Below, piece after piece: positions 4,597 to 20,000 of a stretch of DNA of 20,000 nt (position 1 is its first letter; every line of letters begins with the position of its first letter). Below the pieces are notes generated by a model. That model was not told the DNA's origin. It was given only the letters and a program-made list of their open reading frames with translations, and did no database searches. The position numbers and the translations under genes are program-made. Source of the stretch: an uncultured virus (IMG/VR IMGVR_UViG_3300027801_000017) (Duplodnaviria; Heunggongvirae; Uroviricota; Caudoviricetes; Crassvirales); the IMG/VR virus record IMGVR_UViG_3300027801_000017, one strand, 5' to 3'.

Positions 4597-7500
4597 ATGA
4601 ATGAAAAATTCTTAGAACTATATGAATATTTAAAATCTGAAGGAATCACTGACTTATCTCCTGAAGATTTCTATAACGCATATAAAGACCCCAATAAAGC
4701 AAAAGATGTTTATGACTTTGTTTCTAGTGAAGAAATGACGGATTTAAATGAGAATGACTTTTTCTCTGCTTATTTCGGAACTGAAGTAAAAAAAAAAGAC
4801 GATTCAGAAGTTGTTACAGATACCTCAGAAGTTGTTACAGATACTTCAGAAGTATCAGAATCCGAAGTCCTTTCTACAGGAGCTGACGAGACTAGCGAGA
4901 CTGAAGAAGCTGTTACGCCACCTATAAACTTTGATGAATTAACATATTTTGATTTTTCCTCAATAAATAGAGCAGTTAATGGGGTGGAATTTTCGGATGA
5001 TAATATAGGGCATCTTTCAGAATCAAAAGAAGAAGAATTATTAGATTTAAATATCAATCCTCATATTCAGTCTTTAGTATCTATAGGTGCGAATATGCCA
5101 GAGGATGCTAATGTTGCTGTGACAGAATTAAGTCCATCTGAGAAGAAAACGTATGATTTTAATTTTTCTAGATACCAGAAAGTACTTGATAATCAAAATA
5201 AAGTAAAAGAAGTTAATGTACAAAAAGGAACTAATACTGGACAGTATGGTTTTAATTTAGCAGATGCTTCGTTACCAGGTCTAATACCAAGTCTTGAAGG
5301 TTTTGGCCCTTTTGGTGGAGAGACAACCTACAATCCCGTACCAGGAGAAGATAATTATTCAAATGACCCTGAAGTTATTGCTAAAGCTAAAGTTATTTTA
5401 GATACAGACCTTCCTAGAGCAAGAAATAAAATTATTAGGATATTTAAGAATAAGAAAAAAAGCTATGGTTTACCTTCCGATATAACTACCGCTACTGATG
5501 AGCAGTTAGCAGAAGCTTTTAAGAAATTTAATAAAGAAAATACTTATGCTAAAACTGGGAAGTCTATAACCACTACTATGCCTATAAGCGGAGGAACTTC
5601 TACAGAGCCGACTTATGAAAAAGACTATATAAATATTAATAAGAAGTATTTAGAAAAAATATTTAATAATCAATTTCTAGTAGCAAAGAATAACGCTCAG
5701 ATAGAACTAGACAAAAAGGTAGATGAAGAAAAAAGAACAGCGATTCAAAATGCAGATTCTTCTATTTTATCTAGAGATGTTATAGGTAAGAGAATATATG
5801 ATTTTCATAAAGACTATGATTATAATAATAATATGAGTACAGAGGAGCAAAGGTACTCAGATGCTGAAACTGTATTAGAAGGTCTGGAAGTTCAATTAAA
5901 AAAATTAACAGCAGAAGAAAAGACTCCAGATGATGAACTTATAACAGAATGGGAAAAAGCAAAAGCCGAACTTGCATCAGCTCAAAAAGGATTAGGGGAC
6001 GATATACATCCTTTATATGACCCACTTACTGGAGAGAGAACAGATAAACTTGAAGGGGCTTTAGACTTAACTGAGCAAATAAAAAGACATGAAAAAGATG
6101 CTTTAACTTTTAAAGGAAATATAAAAAATAGATACGTAACGGTATCTAATAGAGAAGAAGACCATAGGATAATGGGGGGTCTCATGACAAGAGATTTAAT
6201 AGTTAAAGACCCTCGTAGGTGGCAGAAAAGAGCTAATCAAGAAGGATTTATAATAGAGCCCTCTGATGATGGGAAAAGCTTTATAATAAAAGGAGTCCCA
6301 TTAAGTAAAATCGGGTTGTATACTAGTGATATTTTAAATAAAGAGGTAAAAAATGAAGCAGAAGAGTGGAATGATAAAAATGCAGAGAATATAGCTTCTA
6401 GAAAAGTTTGGATGAAGATGGCTTTAACAAATATAGACCCAGGTAAGGTTGATAAAAGTAAGACCGCTAGATTTTTTGAGGTTCTTGCTGGAGATGGAGC
6501 TTTGGCGGCTAGTTTTGGAATGTCTGACCAAAAGTTTGTTGATTTCTCTGTAGATGAATTTACAAAGGCAGGTATTCCTTTATCCCCATCTCTAATTAAG
6601 AATATGAAAAGAACATGGGGAATGGAGCTAACTGAACAGGGTGCTGGTTTTCTTCCTATAGCAGCTCAAATGTGGTTAGGTAATAAAGTTTTAGGGGCTG
6701 TGGGTTTTGCAGGGTGGCTTAAAAATACAGTACAGGGATTAAATACAGCAAAGAAGTTTCAAAGGTGGAATAAGTTTAGAGGGTTTATCTTAGAGGCTAG
6801 TGTTGAGGAGGTAAAGATGCAAACTTATGGCTTTCATGATGGTACTGGATTTGGGTTTACTATGGCTGGCCGTTTTATGCCTGCTGCTGGGATATTTAAA
6901 TTTAAAGGGGAATTGGCTAGATTAAATACTGTAGGAAATGTGGTTTTTGATAGCGGATTGAAGGGTGCGTTTGCTTTAGAGTTTGCTGGTCATGTAGAGG
7001 CTATTGTTGAGGATGTAAAGGGAGGTTCAGCATATGGAACTTTTATGGAAGAACAATACCCTGATGTATCCACTGTTGGGAGAAGGGTAATTTTAAGTGG
7101 TGCTCTATTTTCTATCTATGGAGGTATGGGTCTATTTGGTAAAGGTAGGTCAGGTATGAATATTAAAAACATGGAGAGTGTTGTAAAGGAGTTAAAGCAA
7201 AAAGGATATAATGAGGAAGCTTTAAAAATACAAAAGAATGTAGATTTATATTATGAAGGTAAAAAGAAATTATCTAAAGAAGAGCAGGATATACTTACTG
7301 AGAATGAAAACGGAAAAGGAAAAGAATATAATACTGATTTAACAGAAGCAGAATTAAAGCAAAGGTTAAAAGATATGGGAGGCAGGGAAGTTAAACCTGA
7401 AGCTGAAGTTAAAGCAGAAGAAGTTAAAGCAGAAGAGGTAAAAGTAGAAGAGGTTAAAACAACTTCTGAAACAAGAGAAAGCTTAGAAAGAGAAGTGCAG

Positions 7501-10500
7501 AAAACATGGGAAGAGTTAGAAAACACCCCTGAAACTAAATTTAAAAAGAGAAGAGAACTTAATAAAAAGTTAGATGAGCTTATTCCAAAATATGAGAAAC
7601 TTGAAGCAGAGGTTAAACCTGAAGCTGAAGTTAAAGAAGTAGAAATACCGTCTTCTTACAATGAGAAGATGAAAGTTTATAAACAAAGTGATTTAGGAGG
7701 AGGTAAAGGAGGTAAGGTTAATGAAAAATCTGATTTAGTTAAAGAGGCTGAAACTCCAGAAGGTAAAGAATATGTAAAACAAGAAGTAGAAAAATTAGAA
7801 AAAAATGAAGATGGCACTATAACAGTTTATAGAGTAGGTAATCTAAATGAAGGTCATAATCCTACAACTACTAGTAAAAAGACGGCTGAGACGATAGCTA
7901 AAGAGAGAAAGGCTCAAGGATTAAGTTCTCAAATAATAGAAACTAATGTAAAAGCAGAAGATATATCTGTTGTTGTCCCTGGGGTAGAAGCTGAGATTTT
8001 CGTAAAGGTAACTAAAGAGAACCAAAGTAGGATTAATGAAAATAGTAATACTCTACAAGAAGGTCAATCATTAAAATCTTTACAACAAAGAATAAATGAA
8101 TTACAAAAAGATGTTGAGAAAACAGAAAAAGATTTAACAAGTGGAAAAATAAAAGGAGATATTTATACTAATAGTATAAAAAAGAAAAAGACGGAGATAA
8201 GTAATCTTGAAAAACAAATTAATAAAAAGAAGTCAGATTCTAAATCTGAAAAATTAACAAAGTTAAGAGAGGAAGCTGCGAAATCATTAAATTTTAAACC
8301 TGAAGTAAAAGAGGTGAAAGTAGAGGAAACTACTGGAAAGGAAGTGAAAGTAGAGGAAACTACTGGAAAGGAAGTGAAAGAACCTGAAAAAGAAGTGGTA
8401 GTACCTGAAAAAGAAGTGGTAGAAATATTATTAAATAAGAAAGATGGAGTATTTGCAGGTATATGGAATAGAGGTGGTTTTAGTGCAAGCAATAAAGCAG
8501 GGGATAAGGACGCTCATAGCGCCAATACACGAAAAGTACAAGAGAAATCAGAAGAATTACAAAAATTAGAATCTAATAATCCAAAAGTAAATGAAGGGGA
8601 GTTTAGTGTTTCTGGAACTTTTGAAGGTAGTGGTTATAGAGCTATTGTTGGAAAAGAAAGAGGGGAGTTATCAGATATTAGAGAGAAGGCATCTCAAACA
8701 GAGAAAATGTTTTTTAATGAGCAAACTCTTGAAAATGGAGATGTAGTATATTCTTTAATAAACGGAAAACATAGAGTTCGTAATAGAGAAGGTTATTATG
8801 CTGTAAATCTTACATATAAGAAGGGTACAGAAGTGAAGTTAAATGATGTAAAAAATCTTTTGACTACAAAAATGAATGATATAACCACTATTATTACAGG
8901 GGTAAAATCCACAGTTAAGCCTAAAGTAGAACCTAAAGTAGAGCCTACAGTAAAAGAAGTTACAGAAAGCATAGAAGAGGTTAAGGTTGAAGACAGTAAG
9001 AGCACCAATCCTTCATTTGAAAAAGGCAGTATGCGTAATTTTTCTGTAGACGGTGGAGTATTAGAAATAGGAAGGGTAAATAATGCAAGTTTATCGTCAA
9101 TTTTAAAATTAGAGGTTGAAAAAGACTCAAGAAGACAAGGCAAGGCTGAAGTGTTATTAAAACGAGCATTAAACGAAACTAAAGGGGAATTATCAGGACA
9201 AGCATCTAACGATGCTGCTGTAGCGTTAAATTACAAATTAGGTATGAGAGTAAATGGCAACGAAACCCTCTCCTTAAAAGAATCCCAAAGCGAAAGAGCT
9301 CAAAGTGCAGGAGAAAGTGTTAGTATGGTTTTACCTAAAAATAAAAGAGGTGATAATTACAAGCCTTTTAAAGTAGAGCCTACAGTTAAAGAAAAAGTTA
9401 TTGAACCTACAGTTGAACCTGAATATACTAAAAATAACATAATTAATATAAAAGACCCTACTGATGTATTAATACAGGCAAAACAAAAAAGAAAGTTAGC
9501 CAATCAGAAATACAATAAGATGAAAGACTCTCTAACTGAAAAACAAAAGAATCAATTTAGAGAAGAGTCTTTGAAAATAAATAACCTCATTAAAAATTTA
9601 GAAGCTGAGATAGTAGAAAAAGGAGTAACGGGAGAAAAAGGAGAAAAAGAAATACAGCAGTATGCAGATAAAGTCATAGAAGGATTAGAGTCCGCTAAAA
9701 AAACTTTAAAGGAGAGTGGATTAACTTATTCCTTTATCCTACCTGGGGTTAACGCTAAGACACTTTCCGTAGCTTTAGATATAGGGATAGCATCCGTTAA
9801 AGCTACAAAGTCTGCTGTTATTGGGTTAAATAAATTTAAGAATAGTATATTAACACAATTAAACATAAAAAAATTAACTAAAGCTCAAGAAAAACAACTT
9901 AATGATTTCTTTAATAGAAACTATGATTTATCTAAGCAAAAAGTTTTGAGTTATACTAGAGAGATTATAAAAGAAAATAAATTAGATAATGTAGATTCAT
10001 TTATAAAAGAAATGGAGTCAGACCCTATGTTTAAGAAGTATGATAAACAAGATTTAATATTATTGTATAATAATTCTATTAAAGGTAGTACGCTTCAACT
10101 TACCAACATTAAAGAAAAAACTGAAAACCTAAAAAAAGGATTCTTTAAAGGTAAGACTGAGGAGTATAAATTCACTAAACAATCCAAAATAGAAATGGAT
10201 AATGTGATTACAGAGTTTAATCAGTTTGTGGAAACATTAGACGGGAGTATTACCGCTAGTAAGGAGACTATGAGGATAATTGGTAATATTAAAAATAAAG
10301 AAACTTTACAGACAGCTATAAATAGAATAGAAGAGCTAATGTCTGATAAAAAAGTTGTAGAACAAGTGCAGGAAAAAGAGAATGTTATAAATAAAATAAC
10401 TTCTTTGACTAATATTAAAGAGGGTGAAGGAAAGGTAAAAAAATCTCTTAGTGGGGGAATAAATATTAATCCTACAACAAAATTAACAAAAGAACAGAGT

Positions 10501-13500
10501 GCAAAACTTTCTACTATAAATACCAAATTAGACAATATAAATAAAATAATTAAAGACGTAAGTAATAAAAAAACGGGTATTGAAAGTGAGATAAAATATT
10601 CTCAAGAGATGGTTAAGGTACTTGAAAGTATAGAAAGATATGAAACGTCAACAAGTGAGGGATTCGTTAGCGTCTCTAAAGGGGGTATCAAAAATGATAA
10701 ACAGTTAGAAAATGCATATTTAAGATTAGAAGAATTAGAATTTTATAATATATACAATTTAGAGGTTAAATCTGGAAACAACTCTTCTTTAACAAATCTG
10801 ATGACTAAAGTAGAGCAATTCCAAACTGAGGGTAAGTCATTATCCACTATACTTAGAAAAGAAAGAGCCATAGAAAAGGCAAAAATAAAAGAGGGGGCAG
10901 TAGTAGCTCTCAAGTGGGATGGGTCTAACTTTGCTAAGTGGTGGAAGAAAAAGTTTAAGACTAAAGAGACGTTTACAGAAGATTTTAACAAAGGAAGAAC
11001 ATGGTATGATGTGTCTGGAGAAAAATCACACTATAATATTATTAGGACTATAGACATGTTTAATAATAAGGATGGTAAGGGAGTGGATTATTACAAAAAG
11101 AATGTTTATGAATCTTATTTTGATGCCAATAGAAATAAAATGAAAGACGAGATGGCTCTTACAAATGAAATGAATGCGGAAATATCAAAGATTTATGGTA
11201 TTACAAAAGGGAAGGGGAATATATTCACAACAAAATCAACCTATATAACAGCAGAAGTAGGTGCGAAACTTACTGAGTTAGGTATCTCAAAAAAACAGCC
11301 TTTTACACAAATCAACTTTGAAGGAAAAACAGAGACAGTATTTAAAAGTGATTTTGGAATGTTAGAGTTATGGCTAATAGCAAAAAATCCTCTAGAGAAA
11401 GCTCCATTAGAGAGAATGGGATGGACTCCTGAAAAATTAAAAGACTTAGATAATCATTTAAGCCCTAAATTAAAAAAACTAGGAGAATTTATGATGGAAA
11501 AGTTAAACGGGGAAAGATATGATAAATATAGTGCTCGTTATCAGGAAAATAAGGGGATAGGCTTACCTAGGGAGGCAAGTGCTCCTTATTACTGGCCTAG
11601 GCGACCAGATGAGGCATGGTCTAATATAGGTAAATCAGAACCTTCTTGGGATAATTCAAGTTGGAATAATTTTTCTTCTACTATTCAAGTTGGTCATCAT
11701 AAATCAAGAACGAGTACTGCTCCTTTTAAATATGATAATGCTATAGCTACTTATATGGGTTATATAAATAAAATGGAACATTATCATCATTTCCAGAAAC
11801 CAGTTGAAATTTATTCCACTGTATTTAAAGACCCTGCTGTAAGACAATCGCTAAATAAAAATTTTGGAACGTCTTATACTCAAGCCATGGATAGGCATAT
11901 AGATAAAATGAAAGGAGAGTTCTCTGCGAAAGGTTGGGAGGTCTTTGATGCATTTTCATTGCAGTTTTCAAAGAACGTATTGTCTGCCAGCCCAGCTATT
12001 GCTGTAAAACAAGCAGCCTCTAGTGTGATATTTGCGTCTGTAACTCCTTTATCTTATACTATCAAATCCGCCCTATCAGGAGGGCAGTATGTAAAAAATA
12101 TAGATGCTAAAACAACTAGCGCTTATATGATGCGGAAATATAGGAGATATGAACTTGGTTATAATGAGCTTAGTCAGCAAAATATTTTCTTTAATGAAAG
12201 CTTTCTTGTTAAGAAATCAATTAAAGGGCAAGAAACATTCAATAGAGCTTTTGGTAGTAATGTTGATTTATCTAAACCTGCCCGCAAGTTTTCTTCATTT
12301 AACAAGAAGTATGTTGAACCTGCAGCTGGATTTCTTTCTCAACGTGGAGATAAGGTTGGAATGACTTGGTTAGGTCAGGGGTATTTAGATTATAAATATG
12401 ATTATTATGCTAGTCGTAAAAATGAGACTACAGGGAAATTGTATACTAAAAAAGAAGCTACAATTGAGGCGGTTAGAGATTATGAGATGCTTGCTCTTAG
12501 TACTCAGCAAACAGATATGGCTATGGAGACATCTAGGTGGAGACAAGATATGGGGTCGTTTGGTAAGCTTCTGACTACATTTACAACATCTATGTCTGCT
12601 GTACGAGAATTTACTGTCCTTAGTCAACAAGAAATGATTAACGGAAAAAATGTAAAGCAAAATGCTAAAAAAGTAGCTGTTTCTTCTGTACTTTTGGGAA
12701 CGATATTTGCTTTTTTAAATAATGGAACATTATCTGATGAAAAAGATGTTGCTTACGCTATAGCAAAAACTAATATTCAAGGATTTATGTTTGCAGGTAA
12801 AGTGATTGATAATATGAAAGGTATGGATAGATATAAGCCATCATCCCAAGTCCCTTTTGAGTCGCATGTCTACAAAATTAGGGGGTTATATTTAAATAAT
12901 AAGAAGAGTAATGATAAGTGGGAAAAACAGATAGATGACTACGCATTAGGTAAAATTAACCTCACAGAGAAGGAATTAAATGTGCTTCGTCTAGAGAATA
13001 AGCAGAGGAAAGATAAATACTTGAAGAGTCTAGGGTTAGAGTTATCAGTTTTCGGTTTACCTATTAGCTTAAAGAATATAAATAAAATTGCAACTAATGC
13101 GGAAAGTGCTTATTACAATGAGATGAAACTTCAACATTTAAATAAACAATTATTATTATTAACGAGCAAGAGCAAAGAGAACATCTCGGCTGAAGATATT
13201 GTAGAAACTAGTTTAGCAAAAAAAGTTTTACTTTTAAATCCCTCTAAATACCAAGAAGGAAAAACAGTGCTAGAATTATTTACGGGTCAAGAAAAACATC
13301 CAGATGAATGGTTTACATTAAGAAATACTTTAAATGATAACTGGGAGCAAGTGATGGCGATTGAAAAATTTAAGAAAAATAACGCTGAACCATACGATAC
13401 CGATAAATTTCTAGAATATTATATTTTAAATAAAAATTACAAAACATCAGAGGAAAAAATAAGAAAAGAACAGATGGAGCTTTTAAAAATTCTAGAATTA

Positions 13501-13590
13501 AGGGATATGAAGAATAAGGAAGAGAAGGAAGAGAAGGTAAACCCAGTAGAAGAGATGAGAAGGCAAAAAATATTAAAACCAGTTAAGTAG
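4597..13590 (+). CDS. Giant internal virion / polyvalent protein (2997 aa) with putative ADP-ribosyltransferase and GNAT domains
   Basis: 9-kb ORF. It has an acidic N-terminus and a Gly/Ala-rich hydrophobic region (~6480-7150). ART-like motifs VYR / TTTS / EAE lie at 7810-8010. GNAT motifs RRQGKA and 'NDAAVALNYKLG' lie at 9031-9252. K/E/V/P linkers separate these, followed by a long helical C-terminal region. Confidence 0.8.
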   Translation: MNEKFLELYEYLKSEGITDLSPEDFYNAYKDPNKAKDVYDFVSSEEMTDLNENDFFSAYFGTEVKKKDDSEVVTDTSEVVTDTSEVSESEVLSTGADETSETEEAVTPPINFDELTYFDFSSINRAVNGVEFSDDNIGHLSESKEEELLDLNINPHIQSLVSIGANMPEDANVAVTELSPSEKKTYDFNFSRYQKVLDNQNKVKEVNVQKGTNTGQYGFNLADASLPGLIPSLEGFGPFGGETTYNPVPGEDNYSNDPEVIAKAKVILDTDLPRARNKIIRIFKNKKKSYGLPSDITTATDEQLAEAFKKFNKENTYAKTGKSITTTMPISGGTSTEPTYEKDYININKKYLEKIFNNQFLVAKNNAQIELDKKVDEEKRTAIQNADSSILSRDVIGKRIYDFHKDYDYNNNMSTEEQRYSDAETVLEGLEVQLKKLTAEEKTPDDELITEWEKAKAELASAQKGLGDDIHPLYDPLTGERTDKLEGALDLTEQIKRHEKDALTFKGNIKNRYVTVSNREEDHRIMGGLMTRDLIVKDPRRWQKRANQEGFIIEPSDDGKSFIIKGVPLSKIGLYTSDILNKEVKNEAEEWNDKNAENIASRKVWMKMALTNIDPGKVDKSKTARFFEVLAGDGALAASFGMSDQKFVDFSVDEFTKAGIPLSPSLIKNMKRTWGMELTEQGAGFLPIAAQMWLGNKVLGAVGFAGWLKNTVQGLNTAKKFQRWNKFRGFILEASVEEVKMQTYGFHDGTGFGFTMAGRFMPAAGIFKFKGELARLNTVGNVVFDSGLKGAFALEFAGHVEAIVEDVKGGSAYGTFMEEQYPDVSTVGRRVILSGALFSIYGGMGLFGKGRSGMNIKNMESVVKELKQKGYNEEALKIQKNVDLYYEGKKKLSKEEQDILTENENGKGKEYNTDLTEAELKQRLKDMGGREVKPEAEVKAEEVKAEEVKVEEVKTTSETRESLEREVQKTWEELENTPETKFKKRRELNKKLDELIPKYEKLEAEVKPEAEVKEVEIPSSYNEKMKVYKQSDLGGGKGGKVNEKSDLVKEAETPEGKEYVKQEVEKLEKNEDGTITVYRVGNLNEGHNPTTTSKKTAETIAKERKAQGLSSQIIETNVKAEDISVVVPGVEAEIFVKVTKENQSRINENSNTLQEGQSLKSLQQRINELQKDVEKTEKDLTSGKIKGDIYTNSIKKKKTEISNLEKQINKKKSDSKSEKLTKLREEAAKSLNFKPEVKEVKVEETTGKEVKVEETTGKEVKEPEKEVVVPEKEVVEILLNKKDGVFAGIWNRGGFSASNKAGDKDAHSANTRKVQEKSEELQKLESNNPKVNEGEFSVSGTFEGSGYRAIVGKERGELSDIREKASQTEKMFFNEQTLENGDVVYSLINGKHRVRNREGYYAVNLTYKKGTEVKLNDVKNLLTTKMNDITTIITGVKSTVKPKVEPKVEPTVKEVTESIEEVKVEDSKSTNPSFEKGSMRNFSVDGGVLEIGRVNNASLSSILKLEVEKDSRRQGKAEVLLKRALNETKGELSGQASNDAAVALNYKLGMRVNGNETLSLKESQSERAQSAGESVSMVLPKNKRGDNYKPFKVEPTVKEKVIEPTVEPEYTKNNIINIKDPTDVLIQAKQKRKLANQKYNKMKDSLTEKQKNQFREESLKINNLIKNLEAEIVEKGVTGEKGEKEIQQYADKVIEGLESAKKTLKESGLTYSFILPGVNAKTLSVALDIGIASVKATKSAVIGLNKFKNSILTQLNIKKLTKAQEKQLNDFFNRNYDLSKQKVLSYTREIIKENKLDNVDSFIKEMESDPMFKKYDKQDLILLYNNSIKGSTLQLTNIKEKTENLKKGFFKGKTEEYKFTKQSKIEMDNVITEFNQFVETLDGSITASKETMRIIGNIKNKETLQTAINRIEELMSDKKVVEQVQEKENVINKITSLTNIKEGEGKVKKSLSGGININPTTKLTKEQSAKLSTINTKLDNINKIIKDVSNKKTGIESEIKYSQEMVKVLESIERYETSTSEGFVSVSKGGIKNDKQLENAYLRLEELEFYNIYNLEVKSGNNSSLTNLMTKVEQFQTEGKSLSTILRKERAIEKAKIKEGAVVALKWDGSNFAKWWKKKFKTKETFTEDFNKGRTWYDVSGEKSHYNIIRTIDMFNNKDGKGVDYYKKNVYESYFDANRNKMKDEMALTNEMNAEISKIYGITKGKGNIFTTKSTYITAEVGAKLTELGISKKQPFTQINFEGKTETVFKSDFGMLELWLIAKNPLEKAPLERMGWTPEKLKDLDNHLSPKLKKLGEFMMEKLNGERYDKYSARYQENKGIGLPREASAPYYWPRRPDEAWSNIGKSEPSWDNSSWNNFSSTIQVGHHKSRTSTAPFKYDNAIATYMGYINKMEHYHHFQKPVEIYSTVFKDPAVRQSLNKNFGTSYTQAMDRHIDKMKGEFSAKGWEVFDAFSLQFSKNVLSASPAIAVKQAASSVIFASVTPLSYTIKSALSGGQYVKNIDAKTTSAYMMRKYRRYELGYNELSQQNIFFNESFLVKKSIKGQETFNRAFGSNVDLSKPARKFSSFNKKYVEPAAGFLSQRGDKVGMTWLGQGYLDYKYDYYASRKNETTGKLYTKKEATIEAVRDYEMLALSTQQTDMAMETSRWRQDMGSFGKLLTTFTTSMSAVREFTVLSQQEMINGKNVKQNAKKVAVSSVLLGTIFAFLNNGTLSDEKDVAYAIAKTNIQGFMFAGKVIDNMKGMDRYKPSSQVPFESHVYKIRGLYLNNKKSNDKWEKQIDDYALGKINLTEKELNVLRLENKQRKDKYLKSLGLELSVFGLPISLKNINKIATNAESAYYNEMKLQHLNKQLLLLTSKSKENISAEDIVETSLAKKVLLLNPSKYQEGKTVLELFTGQEKHPDEWFTLRNTLNDNWEQVMAIEKFKKNNAEPYDTDKFLEYYILNKNYKTSEEKIRKEQMELLKILELRDMKNKEEKEEKVNPVEEMRRQKILKPVK
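4804..4853 (+). repeat. 21-bp in-frame tandem repeat (SEVVTDT x2 plus partial)
   Basis: tcagaagttgttacagatacc / tcagaagttgttacagatact / tcagaagt. Confidence 0.9.
7390..7636 (+). repeat. 25-bp exact direct repeat (7390-7414 and 7612-7636), encoding VKPEAEVK
   Basis: gttaaacctgaagctgaagttaaag occurs at both positions. The first copy is followed by degenerate 15-bp EEVKA units. Confidence 0.9.
8311..8422 (+). repeat. Tandem repeats: 30-bp unit (EVKVEETTGK) x2.3, then 21-bp unit (PEKEVVV) x2
   Basis: 8311-8340 and 8341-8370 differ at one base. acctgaaaaagaagtggtag occurs at 8382 and 8403. Confidence 0.9.
8934..9393 (+). repeat. Direct repeat flanking the GNAT module (8934-8958 and 9369-9393), encoding KVEPTVKE
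   Basis: taaagtagagcctacagt is exact over 18 bp and extends to 25 bp with one mismatch. Confidence 0.85.
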
Positions 13591-14408: not shown

Positions 14409-14441
14409 GTATATGTCTTTATGCTTAGGATTAGATTTAAT

Positions 14442-15554
14442 ATGAAAAATATATTAATTGTGTTTTTAATGTGCTTGTCCTTTATCTCTAAAGGGCAATT
14501 TGATTATAGCACCTATCTTAAAGATTTTGATTTAAAGAGTAATTTAAAAAAGCATTTAAAGTTTTCCACTGTTTATGCAGCTGTTAATGGCGGTACATCT
14601 ATATATGACGTTAAAGCTTTTTCAGTTACAACAGGAATACTAGAAGAAGAGCTTATCAATACTCCTTACGATTACTCTATTACCCTAGGTATACGTAAGA
14701 TAGCTAGATTTGGTTACGAAAATAAAGCTAATACATTTTATGATGGTACTGAAACCTCTTGGTCAGATAATGCCACGATAGGTAAAGTAAGAGGGTTTGA
14801 GTACTTATTTGAAGTGGACTACTCTAGGCAACAAGGTATAAATTATATAGACCAACATCATTTTATTAGATACAGTTCAGATGATGATTGTGAAGGCCCT
14901 TTTTGTATAAACCACTTAGCAGCAAAGATAGAATACTTACAAGATGGCTTTGCAGATATAGAGTATTTTGAAGCATCAGAAAGATATAGATATAAAAAAG
15001 ATAAAAATTTAGCATTTAGTATAGGAGCCGTACAACGGCTTTCAGAGCCTTATGGGTATAACCCTCTAGAAGAGTGGTTGCTTTCAAATGGCAGCCTGCA
15101 TTATACGTATTTAGCTATAATGGAAGGATATACAGTAGATGTATATGCAAATGAATATAAAGACCCTAGCGGAAATGTAGTAGCTACTTCAGCTGAAGTT
15201 TGGGAAGAGGTAGTAATACCACAAGTTCTTTCTACCTATAGTGAAAAGAAAAGAAGTGAATTAAAAAATCAAATCCAACATTCTATAGTTATAGGTGCGG
15301 ACTATTATAAGTATACTAAAAAAACTTGGTTACATGCTTGGGCTAATTTAATGCCTTATCACTACGATGACGGAAATGAATTTTCCTACCACAAATACAA
15401 TGATAGTGAACAATGGTATGACTACTCAGGCGGTGTAATATATGGAGTGAAAGTTGATAAACATCTAGGTTATTTTGTAGAAGGAAAGTACAATAAGTAC
15501 TGGAACCGAGAATGGTATGATTTTAAATTAGGAATTAATTATATAATCTTTTAA
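14442..15554 (+). CDS. Signal-peptide-bearing outer-membrane beta-barrel protein (370 aa; start reassigned from 14421 to 14442)
   Basis: MKNILIVFLMCLSFISKG|Q is a Sec signal followed by Gln, as is typical in Bacteroidota. It has many amphipathic aromatic-rich strands and a C-terminal beta-signal-like 'FKLGINYIIF' ending in Phe. Confidence 0.75.
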   Translation: MKNILIVFLMCLSFISKGQFDYSTYLKDFDLKSNLKKHLKFSTVYAAVNGGTSIYDVKAFSVTTGILEEELINTPYDYSITLGIRKIARFGYENKANTFYDGTETSWSDNATIGKVRGFEYLFEVDYSRQQGINYIDQHHFIRYSSDDDCEGPFCINHLAAKIEYLQDGFADIEYFEASERYRYKKDKNLAFSIGAVQRLSEPYGYNPLEEWLLSNGSLHYTYLAIMEGYTVDVYANEYKDPSGNVVATSAEVWEEVVIPQVLSTYSEKKRSELKNQIQHSIVIGADYYKYTKKTWLHAWANLMPYHYDDGNEFSYHKYNDSEQWYDYSGGVIYGVKVDKHLGYFVEGKYNKYWNREWYDFKLGINYIIF

Positions 15555-15564
15555 ACATAAAAAA

Positions 15565-15729
15565 ATGAATTTTATAAACAGCTGGAAACAAGGAAATAAA
15601 CAAGCTAAGTATAATGTAGAAATAAGGATTGGGAGAATAACAGTATTAGAGATAAAAGTATGTCTATGTGGTATTAAGAAATGCTCTAAATTTAGATTTA
15701 TGGTCTTTAATTTTGGATTTGAATTATAA
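15565..15729 (+). CDS. Small basic hypothetical protein, 54 aa (not in the ORF track)
   Basis: MNFINSWKQGNKQAKYNVEIRIGRITVLEIKVCLCGIKKCSKFRFMVFNFGFEL*. It has an A-rich leader, fills the gap between genes, and its stop overlaps the next ATG (TAATG). Confidence 0.75.
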   Translation: MNFINSWKQGNKQAKYNVEIRIGRITVLEIKVCLCGIKKCSKFRFMVFNFGFEL

Positions 15730-16010
15730 TGGAAAAAGAACTAAGTGAAGATACGGCAGTCAAATTAAGTATAAAGACTTTAGGTGGAATAGCCACCTTA
15801 ATAACAATATTAGTAGGGATGTGGTTTACACTGCAAGCTGATATTACGGAAGCAAAAGAGTTGCCTGTTGCGCCAGCTCCTGATGTTACAAGAATGGAGT
15901 TTGATATGAAAGACAAAATGATTAGACAGACTATTATTACAACACAAGAAGATGTTAAGGAGATGCAAAAGACTCTTGAGAGAATAGAGGATAAACTTTA
16001 CGACAGATGA
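15729..16010 (+). CDS. Single-pass membrane protein with C-terminal coiled coil, 93 aa
   Basis: Hydrophobic 'LGGIATLITILVGMWFTL', a Pro-rich hinge and the heptad-like 'TQEDVKEMQKTLERIEDKLY'. Overlaps both neighbouring genes. Confidence 0.75.
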   Translation: MEKELSEDTAVKLSIKTLGGIATLITILVGMWFTLQADITEAKELPVAPAPDVTRMEFDMKDKMIRQTIITTQEDVKEMQKTLERIEDKLYDR

Positions 16011-16369
16011 AAGAAGATGGTATTACCTGGAGAGTGTTCGCTATATATTTAGGAATAATACTCTTGATGCTAATTGGAGGAGGTATTAAAGGACAGGTCA
16101 GTATATCAGTATTTAATGCAGAATGGAACGATGCTAATAAAGTAGATTGGGCATATGACCTTGAGGATGTTCAGACAGCCGCCTATATAGATGTGAGTAA
16201 AGACACAGAGTTGCAAAAGAAACATAAGATAGCGGTTATACCTACTATTATAATATTTAAAGATAATGTAGAGGTTGCTAGGTTTCAAGCTGATTTAAGT
16301 TTTAAGATGGTAGCAACAAGAGAAGAAGTGCAAGAAGAGATTGATAACCAATTAATGAGTGATTTTTAA
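16007..16369 (+). CDS. Exported/membrane-anchored thioredoxin-fold protein lacking CxxC, 120 aa
   Basis: N-terminal hydrophobic segment ending G|Q. 'VFNAEWNDAN' sits at the F.A.WCxxC position. 'YIDVSKDTELQKKHKIAVIPTIIIFKDNVEVARF' matches the thioredoxin C-terminal half with its cis-Pro. The protein contains no Cys. Confidence 0.75.
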   Translation: MKEDGITWRVFAIYLGIILLMLIGGGIKGQVSISVFNAEWNDANKVDWAYDLEDVQTAAYIDVSKDTELQKKHKIAVIPTIIIFKDNVEVARFQADLSFKMVATREEVQEEIDNQLMSDF

Positions 16370-16370
16370 G

Positions 16371-19274
16371 ATGAAAAGAATATTATTTATATTATTATTA
16401 CCACTAACTTTATTTGGACAAAAAGAAGTTATCATACATATTACTACCGATGCTTATCCGTTAGAAACTAAATGGACTTTATATAAAGATGCTTATCAGG
16501 GTGATACTATAGGGTATGTTCCGTATGGTCACTATACTCAGGCTAATACGTCTTACATGGATACGTTATATATACCAGACAGTATAGCTAATATTTCTTG
16601 GGCTATATGGGATGATTGGGGGGACGGAATGCCTGGTGGTAGTTATTATGTTTCTGTATGTAGTGATACTATAATAAGTTACCCTGTACCTACATTTACA
16701 AATGGATTAATACATAACAGAGTCATTCCTCAATGTATGCCAAACCCTCCTCCCTGTGTTCCAGCAACTGTTATAATAAATTTAGACCAATACCAAGGTG
16801 AGACTTCTTGGGATATTAAAGATACAAGTGGCTTTACTTATGCCTCTTCAGTGGCTTATAATGGGCATCCTGATTATGCTACAATAATAATACCAGTATG
16901 TATACCTAAAGGGCCTTTAGAATTTACTATATACGATACTTACGGAGATGGATTAAATGGAGCTTTATGGCAAGGACAAGATGGTTCTTACTATGTAGTA
17001 CAATGTAATGATACATTAATATATGGTACAAATCCTGCATTTGATTATGATACGTCACATGTATTTGTATCTGATTCTTGTCCTCCTATATTGGGATGTA
17101 TGGATATTAATTATGTAGAATTTAATCCTTTTTCAAATGTAGATGATGGTTCTTGCTCTATATTAAAAGTATTTGGATGTATTGATACGTCTATGTATAA
17201 TTTTAACCCTACAGCTAATACAATGAATATGATTGATAGTTGTGATTATACATTAGTATTACATGATTTGATGGGGAATGGATGGGTAGGGTCTTCTTTA
17301 AAAATATATGCTGATGATACTACCGAGTACTATAATACTGGTGGGTTTGATGATATTTATAATGTTAGTTTAAGAGCTCCAGCATTAATAGATATGCAAT
17401 TCTTTATTAGTGCTCAAGCTTCTTTAACAACAATAGAATGTGGATTTACTTTAATTAATCCAGAAGGAGATACATTAATAAGTATTCAACCTCCATTTAT
17501 ACAACCATTATTTGTTTATAGTGCAATAACAAATTGTGGCAACACTTGTATAGAAAAAGTATTTGGGTGTACAGATATATTGGCTGTTAATTACGATAAC
17601 TTGGCAAATACAGATAATAATACGTGTTACTATAATCCAGGTTGCTCTAATTCTTCTTTTTTAGAATATTACACTCAAGGATTTGTAGCTGATTATAATG
17701 ATGGAAGTTGTTTAACTCAAGCCGTTTGGGGATGTATAGATAGTTCGGCTTTTAATTACGATTCCCTAGCTAATCTAGATAATGGTGGATGTGTACCTAT
17801 TGTAATAGGGTGCATGCAACCTTTGGCTTTTAACTATAATCCTCAAGCTAATACGCCTGCTACTTGTGTGGCCATAGTATATGGTTGTATGAGCCAAATA
17901 GCTTTCAATTACGACCCATTAGCAAATGTAGATGATGGTTCTTGCATTGCAATTGTACTTGGTTGTACAAATTCAAATGCCTTTAACTATAATCCTTTGG
18001 CAAACGTAAATAACGGTTCATGTATTGCTATTGTTTATGGGTGTATGAATGCTACGATGTTTAATTATAATCCGCAAGCAAATACAAGTAATGGTTCATG
18101 TATTCCTTATGTTTATGGATGTACAGATAATACTGCTTTCAATTATAATCCACTAGCCAACGCTAGTAATAGTAGTTGTATTCCATTTATCTATGGCTGT
18201 ACTGACCCAACTGCATTGAACTACGACCCACTAGCAAATACTAATGATAATTCCTGTATGCCTTATATTTATGGCTGTACTGATTCTACAATGTTTAATT
18301 ATGACCCTTTAGCTAATAGTGATAATAATACATGTATTGAGTTTATTTATGGATGTACGAATCCTATAGCATTAAATTATAATCCTTTAGCTAATACTGA
18401 TAATTTCTCTTGCATTATCCCTATATATGGATGTATGGATAGTTTAGCATTTAATTACAATCCTTTAGCTAATGTTGATAATGGAAGCTGTGTACCTATT
18501 ATATTAGGATGTACTGACCCTATCGCCTTAAACTATTGTGATTCATGTAATACGGATGATTTTTCCTGTATATTACCAATATATGGATGCACAGATAGTA
18601 TAATGTTTAACTTTAATCCTTTAGCCAATGTTGATAATAATACTTGCATCCCTTATATTTATGGTTGTACTGACCCTACCGCTCTTAACTATAACTCCAA
18701 TGCCAATACAGAAGATTTTACTTGTCTACCTTATATGTACGGTTGTACCGATAGTACTGCTCTTAATTATGATTCAACAGCTAATACTGATAATGGTTCG
18801 TGTGTGGCTGTGGTTGAAGGGTGTATGGATGCGAGTGCTTGGAATTATGAACCGTTAGCCAACACTCATGATAGTATTACATGCTTATACGATGCAGGAT
18901 GTGTGGGGGAGACTGGAACCCCTTATTGGTTAAATGACCCTTGCTATGCTTGGGTTATTGAAGTGGATGAATATTGTTGTGAAAACGAATGGGACACTAT
19001 ATGTCAATTAACATATAATCATTGTGCAGTCGGTTTGCCAGAAGATGTGCAGTTAATGAAAAGAGGTTATAATATAAAATTATATCCTAATCCAACTAAC
19101 AGCATAGTTCATATAAATAATTTTGTAGACATACAAGTTTATGATAGAATTGGAAGGTTAATTATAAGTGGTAAGGGTAATTTTGTAGATTTATCTGATT
19201 ACAGTGATGGTGTTTATAATATTATAACTATATTTGAAGGAAAGAAAAATAATTTTAAAATTATAAAAAATTAA
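16371..19274 (+). CDS. Secreted Cys-rich repeat protein with T9SS type A C-terminal sorting domain (967 aa; start reassigned from GTG 16359 to ATG 16371)
   Basis: Signal peptide MKRILFILLLPLTLFG|Q, N-terminal 'D.(W/Y)GDG' beta-domains, 19 GC(T/M)D..A.NY.P.AN.D.GSC repeats, and a 'V..VD.YCC...WD..C' module. The C-terminus 'IKLYPNPT...IQVYDRIGR...DLSDYSDGVY...FKIIKN' has the YPNP, YD..G, G.Y and K..K motifs of the Por secretion tail. Confidence 0.88.
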   Translation: MKRILFILLLPLTLFGQKEVIIHITTDAYPLETKWTLYKDAYQGDTIGYVPYGHYTQANTSYMDTLYIPDSIANISWAIWDDWGDGMPGGSYYVSVCSDTIISYPVPTFTNGLIHNRVIPQCMPNPPPCVPATVIINLDQYQGETSWDIKDTSGFTYASSVAYNGHPDYATIIIPVCIPKGPLEFTIYDTYGDGLNGALWQGQDGSYYVVQCNDTLIYGTNPAFDYDTSHVFVSDSCPPILGCMDINYVEFNPFSNVDDGSCSILKVFGCIDTSMYNFNPTANTMNMIDSCDYTLVLHDLMGNGWVGSSLKIYADDTTEYYNTGGFDDIYNVSLRAPALIDMQFFISAQASLTTIECGFTLINPEGDTLISIQPPFIQPLFVYSAITNCGNTCIEKVFGCTDILAVNYDNLANTDNNTCYYNPGCSNSSFLEYYTQGFVADYNDGSCLTQAVWGCIDSSAFNYDSLANLDNGGCVPIVIGCMQPLAFNYNPQANTPATCVAIVYGCMSQIAFNYDPLANVDDGSCIAIVLGCTNSNAFNYNPLANVNNGSCIAIVYGCMNATMFNYNPQANTSNGSCIPYVYGCTDNTAFNYNPLANASNSSCIPFIYGCTDPTALNYDPLANTNDNSCMPYIYGCTDSTMFNYDPLANSDNNTCIEFIYGCTNPIALNYNPLANTDNFSCIIPIYGCMDSLAFNYNPLANVDNGSCVPIILGCTDPIALNYCDSCNTDDFSCILPIYGCTDSIMFNFNPLANVDNNTCIPYIYGCTDPTALNYNSNANTEDFTCLPYMYGCTDSTALNYDSTANTDNGSCVAVVEGCMDASAWNYEPLANTHDSITCLYDAGCVGETGTPYWLNDPCYAWVIEVDEYCCENEWDTICQLTYNHCAVGLPEDVQLMKRGYNIKLYPNPTNSIVHINNFVDIQVYDRIGRLIISGKGNFVDLSDYSDGVYNIITIFEGKKNNFKIIKN
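17559..18884 (+). repeat. Intragenic tandem array of 17 degenerate ~78-bp (26-aa) Cys-bracketed repeats; two more copies at ~17088-17243
   Basis: Counted in the translation from VFGCTDILAVNY to VEGCMDASAWNY...TC. DNA copies are diverged at synonymous sites. Confidence 0.92.
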
Positions 19275-19277
19275 ACT

Positions 19278-20000
19278 TTGAAATGGTTAGGACAACATAT
19301 TGTAGATTTCATTGCACGCTTTAGAAGTGATGTCTATTTAGAAGATTTAACTACAGATTCATCTACAGATATTCTTGTAGTTGATACAGATGGTAAGATA
19401 TGTAAAAATTCTGGTGCTGGTGATGATACAAGGTTTACTCTAACAGCAGACAGTGGTGTTAACCAAGTTATAGCAGATGGAAATACTTTAGATATAGCTG
19501 GGGGTAATGCGATAACTACAGTAGTTAGTGCTACTGATACTGTAACTATTAATCACAGTGATACATCTACCTTAGTAGATATAGATAATTCTGGTAATAC
19601 TGTTATACAAGATATAGGTTTTGATACATATGGGCATGTTACTTCCCTAGGAACAGCAGACATTCAATCTGTAGAAACTGCTAATAATGCTACATCAGCA
19701 GAATCAGCTGGAGTTGCGACTAATGTTACAGCATCAGCAAATAATACAGCAGATGAAACAGTATACCCAACTTTTGTAGATGGAGCAACTGGGACTCAAG
19801 GAATAGAAACAGATACAGGGTTAACATATAATCCAGGTACAAATATATTATCATCAGTCAATTTTGAAGGAGCATTAGATGGTGATGCAAGTGGAAGTTC
19901 TGGAAGTTGTACAGGTAACGCAGCAACTGCAACGGCTTTAGCTACATCTAGAAATTTTCAAGCAGATTTAGCTAGTACATCAACAGCTGGTTTTACTGGT
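19278..20000 (+). CDS. Tail fibre-like structural protein, N-terminal part (TTG start, runs off the window; not in the ORF track)
   Basis: 241 open codons: MKWLGQHIVDFIARFRSDVYLEDL...FTLTADSGVNQVIADGNTLDIAGG...FDTYGHVTS...TGNAATATALATSRNF. The sequence is Thr/Ala/Gly/Asp-rich with motifs typical of phage fibre shafts. Confidence 0.75.
   Translation, partial: MKWLGQHIVDFIARFRSDVYLEDLTTDSSTDILVVDTDGKICKNSGAGDDTRFTLTADSGVNQVIADGNTLDIAGGNAITTVVSATDTVTINHSDTSTLVDIDNSGNTVIQDIGFDTYGHVTSLGTADIQSVETANNATSAESAGVATNVTASANNTADETVYPTFVDGATGTQGIETDTGLTYNPGTNILSSVNFEGALDGDASGSSGSCTGNAATATALATSRNFQADLASTSTAGFTG

Follow-up and report, generated by a model that had tools for sequence, protein, structure and literature searches.

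Within a 20,000-nucleotide stretch of DNA from an uncultured virus of the Crassvirales (IMG/VR record IMGVR_UViG_3300027801_000017; the whole stretch is called the window here), we find that the gene at 16371-19274 on the + strand encodes a 967-residue protein that appears to be a phage-borne cargo of the host type IX secretion system (T9SS), a reading that we put at roughly 65% probability. It is supported by an N-terminal export signal, a C-terminal domain (CTD) that passes the cut-offs of both curated sorting-domain models, the phage context of the gene and the absence of any enzyme domain, and it implies that infected cells probably display the protein. The features of the target protein, from its N-terminus to its C-terminus, are as follows.

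16371..16418, + strand: signal peptide, residues 1-16, predicted cleavage between Gly and Gln, with Gln at +1 (sequence inspection and family-wide pattern)
16419..16724, + strand: head domain D1, residues 17-118, beta-sandwich with WDDWGDGM (AlphaFold2 model, AF2, with a local confidence score, pLDDT, of about 90)
16758..17072, + strand: head domain D2, residues 130-234, beta-sandwich with YDTYGDGL (AF2), a module common to bacterial T9SS cargo
17094..17243, + strand: two 26-residue two-Cys repeat units between D2 and D3, residues 242-291 (sequence, AF2)
17244..17546, + strand: head domain D3, residues 292-392 (290-386 in the AF2 model), beta-sandwich beginning with HDLMGNGW
17565..18890, + strand: stalk, 17 units of 26 residues, GC[TM]D..A.NYNPLAN.DN.SC (register table; Tandem Repeats Finder, TRF)
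18891..19025, + strand: Cys-rich module, residues 841-885, ...PCYAWVI.VD.YCCENEWDTICQLTYNHC (core largely invariant in alignment A4)
19080..19271, + strand, with the stop codon at 19272-19274: type A T9SS C-terminal sorting domain, residues 904-967 (TIGR04183, PF18962)

The reading frame is open from 16359 to 19274, and the ATG at 16371 matches the equivalent MKK or MKR starts of homologues. By inspection, the N-terminus that it gives, MKRILFILLLPLTLFG and then QKEV, has a basic n-region and a hydrophobic core followed by Gly-Gln; substrates of Bacteroidota signal peptidases typically have Gln at +1. An earlier, sequence-only reading of this gene had proposed a Sec (general secretion) signal with Gln at +1, and family members retain this pattern: a strict definition (a hydrophobic core, then [AGST]Q) fits 127 of the 149 distinct N-termini, and most of the remaining 22 either come from truncated gene calls or escape the definition although [AGS]Q is visible.

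The CTD occupies the extreme C-terminus, residues 904-967 of 967. It matches TIGR04183 over the complete profile (positions 1-72 of 72; 23.9 bits against a cut-off of 23, E 2.9e-5) as well as PF18962 (27.2 bits against a cut-off of 27, E 4.8e-6), so that the domain described as intact-looking in the sequence-only reading passes the TIGR04183 test which that reading had proposed for it. Type A CTDs follow a scheme of a PNP-type motif, a G.Y motif and a Lys-rich end, and the four CTD-type C-termini of alignment A4 all keep YPNPT, G.YN and the K..I.K ending without change. The CTD scores of orthologues in related phages are higher, at 33.0, 32.5 and 26.8 bits. Moreover, a hidden Markov model (HMM) made from the family's own CTD tails and run over 150 representative matches finds the C-termini of dozens of long relatives with E values down to 5.8e-31, and these long relatives are bacterial-type cargo. 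The type B model, TIGR04131, gives no match, and the NCBIfam search at E<=1 returns TIGR04183 and one weak T9SS DNase model. Model membership, motifs and C-terminal position thus place the protein among predicted T9SS type A cargo.

The gene content of the window identifies it as phage DNA, in agreement with the initial view of the gene as viral. The open reading frame (ORF) at 1-1593 carries the C-terminal domain of the crAss muzzle protein (PF25729, 34.9 bits against a cut-off of 27; phrog_14478, E 1.6e-43), the next ORF matches a tail-fibre PHROG, and all ORFs form a single co-directional block on the + strand with a G+C content of 30-38%, which the target gene resembles; genes for a crAss-type capsid, portal and terminase would lie beyond the window. 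Searching with the muzzle-like ORF by tblastn, we recover 87 GenBank phage records at about 30% identity, of which 86 are named, and all of these infect Flavobacteriia (Flavobacterium 68, Cellulophaga 15, Tenacibaculum 2, Maribacter 1); the nearest isolates by this gene, again at about 30% identity, include the flavobacterial phages phi38:1, Calle, Gundel and 'elemo'. Among five related near-complete viral records (68-95 kb), three match the muzzle domain, one of them above the cut-off, and megablast of the window against GenBank phages finds no match. From the hosts of the isolates, the presence of D2 copies at 29-40% identity in metagenome-assembled genomes (MAGs) of Crocinitomicaceae, Cryomorphaceae, Saprospiraceae and Flavobacterium, and the 36-97 TIGR04183 matches in each of five genomes from the order of a Crocinitomicaceae MAG (G001), we reasonably infer a flavobacterial host with a T9SS; the sequence-only reading had likewise supposed a T9SS in the host.

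In the AF2 model of the head (alignment of 49 sequences, mean pLDDT 83.1), three beta-sandwiches follow one another, D2 and D3 being separated by the two small Cys repeats; the global score (pTM) is only 0.42 because the domains are arranged like beads on a string. The motifs named above lie at residues 80-87, 188-195 and 298-305. D1 and D2 are 32% identical (E 1e-7) and evidently paralogous, whereas D3 has no significant sequence similarity to D2 (E 0.48) and has only the D..G.GW motif in common with the other two, so that the original idea of three related N-terminal domains holds demonstrably for the first two only. The structure prediction and Foldseek search suggested for the head gave three modelled sandwiches and generic matches alone. 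The best PDB match found by VIA-align, that of D1, is a Ca-dependent carbohydrate-binding module (2xhh_A, Z 7.3, root mean square deviation 3.4, 96 residues aligned), and PLAT/C2, DUF3244 and T9SS CTD folds come after it; Foldseek of the three-domain model against PDB returns only multi-C2 or multi-sandwich proteins at TM-scores below 0.2. Since all VIA-align matches fall below Z 8, the level of a generic beta-sandwich, we claim no specific fold family for the head. An adhesin or decoy held on a rigid, possibly Ca-binding stalk, as pictured in the sequence-only reading, is conjectural, the Ca-dependent module at only Z 7.3 being the best fold match.

No enzyme family in Pfam, NCBIfam or PHROGs matches the protein, consistent with the early remark that no catalytic motif is evident, and PHROGs has no match to it of any kind. 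A profile-free search among 1.8 billion representatives gives 3062 proteins with relatives of D2. Of 40 distant relatives scanned, 32 carry PF18962 and several have M4, M12, M43 or trypsin peptidase domains, so that the head domains are accessory modules of Bacteroidota secreted proteins; they are of a binding type that this phylum employs in secreted proteases and adhesins. ESM Atlas returns the protein's own viral clusters and weak leads only (barrel families 0.92-0.93; MAM 0.80).

Behind the head, residues 399-840 comprise 17 units of 26 residues with two Cys each, 15 of them (451-840) in perfect register, and TRF detects a 78-nucleotide period in the DNA (4.9-6 copies). With the two units ahead of D3, these make up the long disulfide-type repeat stalk that had been recognized at first sight. 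The number of units varies among orthologues, whose lengths range from 611 to 1028 residues. Variation in repeat number as read from metagenome contigs was set aside, the joints within 17774-18660 being unreliable (sides of 20-33 letters at 90% likeness). The whole protein is very acidic and Asn-rich and contains 55 Cys, a number that fits folding outside the cytoplasm. The YCC...WD..C module noted in the sequence-only reading is found at residues 858-885 and in 169 family sequences, and its core is largely invariant in alignment A4. A PDB sequence search with the stalk, module and C-terminal end (residues 395-967) yields nothing below E 0.26. The triplet D-[ST]-[AILVMT], which we take to be the Bacteroidota O-glycosylation sequon, occurs 15 times in the protein, whereas shuffling its residues gives 3.9 +/- 1.9 (none of 2000 shuffles attains 15), part of the excess coming from the repeat motif CTDST; together with the binding-type heads, this excess fits passage through the periplasm.

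Under the T9SS-cargo reading, Sec would export the protein late in the infection of a marine flavobacterium, and the signal peptide would be cut before Gln17. In the periplasm, the protein would fold and form its disulfides, giving three beta-sandwich heads on a stalk of 26-residue two-Cys repeats. The type A CTD would then direct passage through the T9SS translocon, leaving the protein displayed on, or shed from, the infected cell. Its most likely role would be ligand binding or masking of the cell surface, for example against superinfection or the loss of progeny on debris. What the data show directly is the anatomy of the protein, its match to the HMMs, the phage context, the exchange of tails and the conservation of the cassette; the route of export, the display at the surface and the role are inferred from these.

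The family to which the protein belongs ends in two different ways. A search with the head (residues 1-420) gives 2592 protein clusters at E<=1e-3, of which the best 120 are 62-86% identical and 611-1028 residues long; for NCBI-sourced homologues, the cluster look-up returns only 'hypothetical protein'. In IMG/VR, the same head is found at 61 loci on viral contigs of up to 95 kb: 44 loci end in a short tail and six in a CTD, while ten run off the end of their contig and one is ambiguous. After six entries without a classifiable end were dropped (P0022, P0039, P0080, P0105, L050 and L061), 156 distinct heads remain, 131 with the short tail and 25 with the CTD. The short tail has about 40 residues with the consensus ..KKLI.ITDLLGRP.K..KN.LLF.IY.DGTVEKK.IK, and the exchange takes place just after the Cys-rich module, the last segment common to both variants. 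For example, P0110, with a CTD, and P0108, with the short tail, share about 96% identity over some 700 columns as far as ...TYNHC and are unrelated thereafter, and for nine of the 25 CTD-type heads, the nearest head belongs to a short-tail protein (87.5-96.7% identity). A FastTree phylogeny of the 156 heads requires at least 15 tail changes, a number that tree error may raise; with the tail labels shuffled 500 times, 23.6 changes are needed on average and never fewer than 20. The swap is recent and recurrent, and the C-terminal address is an exchangeable cassette, the tail behaving like an address label.

The short tail extends beyond phages. Neither Pfam nor NCBIfam matches it in the three phage and 14 bacterial proteins compared, and an HMM of the tail finds the extreme C-terminus of seven unrelated long proteins among the 150 representatives, one with a trypsin domain, as well as four ORFs in the Crocinitomicaceae MAG G001. 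In the order of G001, 131 of 301 sampled genomes match (E<=1e-4), with 1-12 copies in a genome; the five genomes checked have 36-97 type A CTDs each as well. All 16 bacterial loci inspected (L073-L088) have the tail at the very end of the frame without a preceding YPNP; signal peptides with Gln at +1 are present in 12, and the locus edge truncates the remaining four. The passengers are of kinds typically found outside the cell and include PHA depolymerase, multicopper oxidase, GH16, arylsulfotransferase, leucine-rich repeat and choice-of-anchor J proteins. In these secreted Flavobacteriales enzymes, the tail has the consensus ..LVKIVDLLGRE......N..LFYIYSDGT.EK..... The idea that the short tail is a shortened CTD does not stand as demonstrated homology: hhalign gives a probability of 91.7% with the shared linker and 8.4% without it (local E 0.004, global E 0.084).

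Several of these results weigh against T9SS export of the target protein. Its CTD scores pass the cut-offs by less than 1 bit. Most orthologues have no recognizable CTD (131 of 156 heads; 44 of 61 IMG/VR loci); hence, the core role of the family cannot depend on the canonical type A signal, and only a minority of orthologues would be exported by the T9SS. Once the shared linker is taken away, homology between the short tail and the CTD cannot be demonstrated. The target also has its place among late structural genes, with a giant ORF upstream and a fibre-like ORF downstream. Two copies of the 26-residue two-Cys repeat also occur in gp232 of Synechococcus phage S-CAM3 (L089:2857-4407), which is annotated as a virion structural protein and has no signal peptide, so that the repeat is confined neither to secreted proteins nor to phages of Bacteroidota.

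The target gene is part of a conserved cassette, the other members of which, together with the ORF that follows the target, are listed here.

14421..15554, + strand: predicted outer-membrane beta-barrel, 377 residues, signal peptide ending ...SKG ahead of Gln, C-terminal end ...NYIIF (AF2, PDB matches)
15729..16010, + strand: 93-residue protein with one hydrophobic segment and then a charged, probably helical tail (sequence; conserved in 72 of 80 loci)
16007..16369, + strand: 120-residue exported or membrane-anchored protein with a putative thioredoxin-like (Trx-like) fold lacking CxxC (sub-threshold models)
19278..20000, + strand: downstream ORF that starts with TTG and has no stop before the window ends (phrog_34255, function unknown, E 5.4e-9; fibre-like by inspection)

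The AF2 model of the barrel (pLDDT 72.3, pTM 0.66) has 12 long strands and a helical insert. Its 179 PDB matches at E<=1e-3 are led by NanC, PorB, DcaP, NalP and FapF, the leading matches all being outer-membrane barrels; Pfam and NCBIfam at E<=5 and tblastn against GenBank phages give no match. Conservation is higher in the barrel (73% mean column identity, 39 sequences) than in the cargo, and IMG/VR has at least 587 matching stretches. Of these, 80 loci were fetched: 72 encode the 93-residue protein, read by eye as a coiled coil, 68 the Trx-like protein and 65 the target head, and the loci that lack them are mostly cut short. Conversely, every one of the 61 target-fetched loci that reaches far enough carries the other cassette genes, the barrel lying upstream or just downstream of the target, depending on the locus. 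Similarity between these phages is not detectable in the genes flanking the cassette. Two barrel loci, L136 and L169, have several kilobases of flank and none of the other three genes. In the Trx-like family, thioredoxin models stay below their cut-offs (PF00085 19.8 against 23.5; TIGR01068 22.1 against 96.8), FNA.WN..N is conserved instead of CxxC, and Cys is entirely absent from 14 of 51 homologues. The stop codon of this gene lies 1 nucleotide ahead of the target ATG, and the two genes, the second encoding 55 Cys, are probably coupled.

A lipobox-like N-terminus, ...SC....KKCC[GAS]Q, replaces the plain signal peptide of the target protein in L033, L035 and L036 and is also found on the barrel in L003, L004, L006, L007, L015, L029-L032 and others, so that in some phages this motif occurs on two different cassette proteins.

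Tentatively, and with the odds somewhat against it, the short tail may serve marine Flavobacteriales as a compact signal for sorting or anchoring that no catalogue lists and that is functionally interchangeable with the type A CTD. This phage lineage would then swap the two labels on an otherwise near-identical protein according to the secretion or anchoring machinery of its current host, and the target protein would be the displayed part of a four-gene envelope device.

The main rival explanation, which we consider unlikely, puts the envelope device first: the barrel, the coiled-coil protein, the Cys-less Trx-like protein and the target would act together at lysis in the manner of spanins, or the target would be anchored in the barrel. 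Its tail would then be a dock or anchor instead of a T9SS export signal, and the canonical CTD of this protein an interchangeable add-on. The joint travel of the four genes, the single nucleotide between the Trx-like stop and the target ATG, the well-supported barrel fold and the rarity of the CTD among orthologues are all consistent with this. In L001, moreover, an endolysin-like gene directly follows the target (phrog_3000, E 1.3e-30; phrog_33083, E 2.3e-13), and L001 is the one locus where this neighbour is found. Two-component spanins pair an inner-membrane coiled-coil subunit with an outer-membrane lipoprotein subunit near the lysis genes. Set beside them, the 93-residue protein has a fitting topology by eye, and the outer-membrane partner would be a barrel with a type I signal, the N-terminus being lipobox-like in some homologues. 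However, no family model ties the partners to spanins or to PorP/SprF, and L136 and L169 show the barrel without the other three genes despite room in the flanks. Bacterial enzymes of the ordinary secreted kind also finish in the short tail with no such cassette nearby, which argues for a general sorting signal rather than a barrel-specific dock. A complex prediction of the barrel (residues 25-377, alignment A2) with the C-terminal 128 residues of the target (A4) scored 0.00 and is not evidence either way.

Less probable still is that the protein is a virion component such as a fibre, whisker or decoration, with an uncleaved N-terminal hydrophobic stretch and a 'CTD' that is merely an Ig-like fibre sandwich. 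The place of the gene between structural genes, with the giant ORF upstream and the phrog_34255 ORF downstream, would suit such a role, as would the repeat unit in the signal-less gp232 and weak BFVD matches to tail and adhesin proteins. Yet the signal peptide with Gln at +1 is conserved in orthologues at 41-86% identity, the neighbouring barrel and Trx-like proteins have the same kind of signal, and both tails are extreme C-terminal modules of bacterial secreted proteins; the conserved signals and the bacterial pedigree of the tails make a virion role unlikely. The 55 Cys in paired repeats and the lack of a PHROG match also speak against it. That the gene is a recently captured host gene, a passenger without a role in infection, seems highly improbable, since clear bacterial relatives of D2 and the CTD are outweighed by a head architecture common to 2592 protein clusters, a viral contig at 61 of 61 IMG/VR loci, a fixed place in a conserved cassette, a G+C content like that of the rest of the window and nearest bacterial copies that are 29-40% identical and cover D2 alone.

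As a T9SS cargo, the target protein resembles bacterial type A cargo in having a Sec signal, a passenger and a CTD of about 70 residues with YPNP, G.Y and a Lys-rich end, and D2 is common to both. It differs in being phage-encoded and in scoring just above the cut-offs, its secretion being predicted from sequence. The CTDs of Flavobacterium johnsoniae NucA and RemA (PDB 8GLK and 8GL6; names from the PDB titles) matched D2 and not the target CTD. The type B cargo SprB is encoded with SprF, an outer-membrane partner of the PorP/SprF type, and the target likewise is a putative secreted surface protein encoded beside its own outer-membrane barrel. In contrast to SprB, it has no TIGR04131 match, and its barrel is without a Pfam match and looks 12-stranded with a helical insert. 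Thus, neither a type B CTD nor a PorP/SprF-family barrel next door, the marks of that group, is found here.

Phage proteins with a T9SS type A sorting domain have been described in the uncultured glacier phage 'Cryophage', where they were called a 'unique occurrence'; in that account, the cargos vary among phage variants, and secretion by the host system, possibly for superinfection or competition, was proposed (Bellas et al. 2020, PMC7468147). The target is likewise phage-encoded with a type A sorting domain. In the glacier phage, however, the passengers of the cargos are enzymes (endoglucanase, GH39) or PA14 (PMC7468147). The target is enzyme-free, repeat-rich and marine, lies in a four-gene envelope cassette and has a tail that alternates with a non-CTD module. 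ORFs with T9SS sorting domains were also reported, with their function left open, in crAss-like cluster 2 gut phages (de Jonge et al. 2019, PMC6949934), which resemble the present case in their crAss-type features, Bacteroidota hosts and position of the ORFs near structural genes. They differ in habitat (gut) and in their BACON-repeat passengers, and the part of that paper dealing with these ORFs does not mention tail swapping or an envelope cassette (PMC6949934).

Phage-encoded T9SS cargo is therefore already in print, and what is new here is that the tails alternate, that the short tail is widespread as a C-terminal module and that four genes form a conserved cassette. To our knowledge, such cargo has been noticed twice in print and never tested. 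A keyword-based survey of the open-access literature, in which motifs are not searchable, yielded no account of the family, the short tail or the cassette, which does not prove that none exists. In BFVD, A0A7S9XDT1 (Virus NIOZ-UU157) is 52% identical over 299 columns (E 2.6e-40), and the structural look-alike A0A218MM41 from an uncultured virus (E 1e-32) bears the UniProt name 'Secretion system C-terminal sorting domain-containing protein'; the open-access literature gave no paper describing either.

With its 2592 protein clusters and contigs of up to 95 kb, the family is very common in ocean viromes and thus offers a large natural data set on how phages may refit the surfaces of abundant marine flavobacteria. 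Its most useful by-product is the set of natural chimeras, near-identical proteins ending in a type A CTD or in the short tail. Should the short tail prove to be a secretion signal, an extra class of cargo, missed by current annotation in 131 of the 301 sampled genomes, would come to light, and secretion assays would gain a minimal tag.

Elsewhere in the window, a promoter and terminator scan gives a site count not above that of shuffles. The giant ORF upstream of the cassette (4597-13590, 2997 residues) finds no match in PHROGs or Pfam or among PDB sequences. Related loci have giant ORFs of 1428+ to 2481 residues at the equivalent position, with no similarity detected by tblastn at E 1e-5, and the product may be a virion protein that evolves fast, for example a crAss-type virion RNA polymerase. 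Where the window has its downstream ORF, L001 has an endolysin-like gene instead. A full head, 57% identical, occurs on a 7254-bp contig (L062, NZQM01000097.1) in a MAG of Parvibaculum (Alphaproteobacteria), most likely a mis-binned phage contig. At least 0.73 of the sampled cassette words are present in five marine metagenome runs from two studies, no RNA run being listed among the matches, and four of the five runs cover the cassette throughout.

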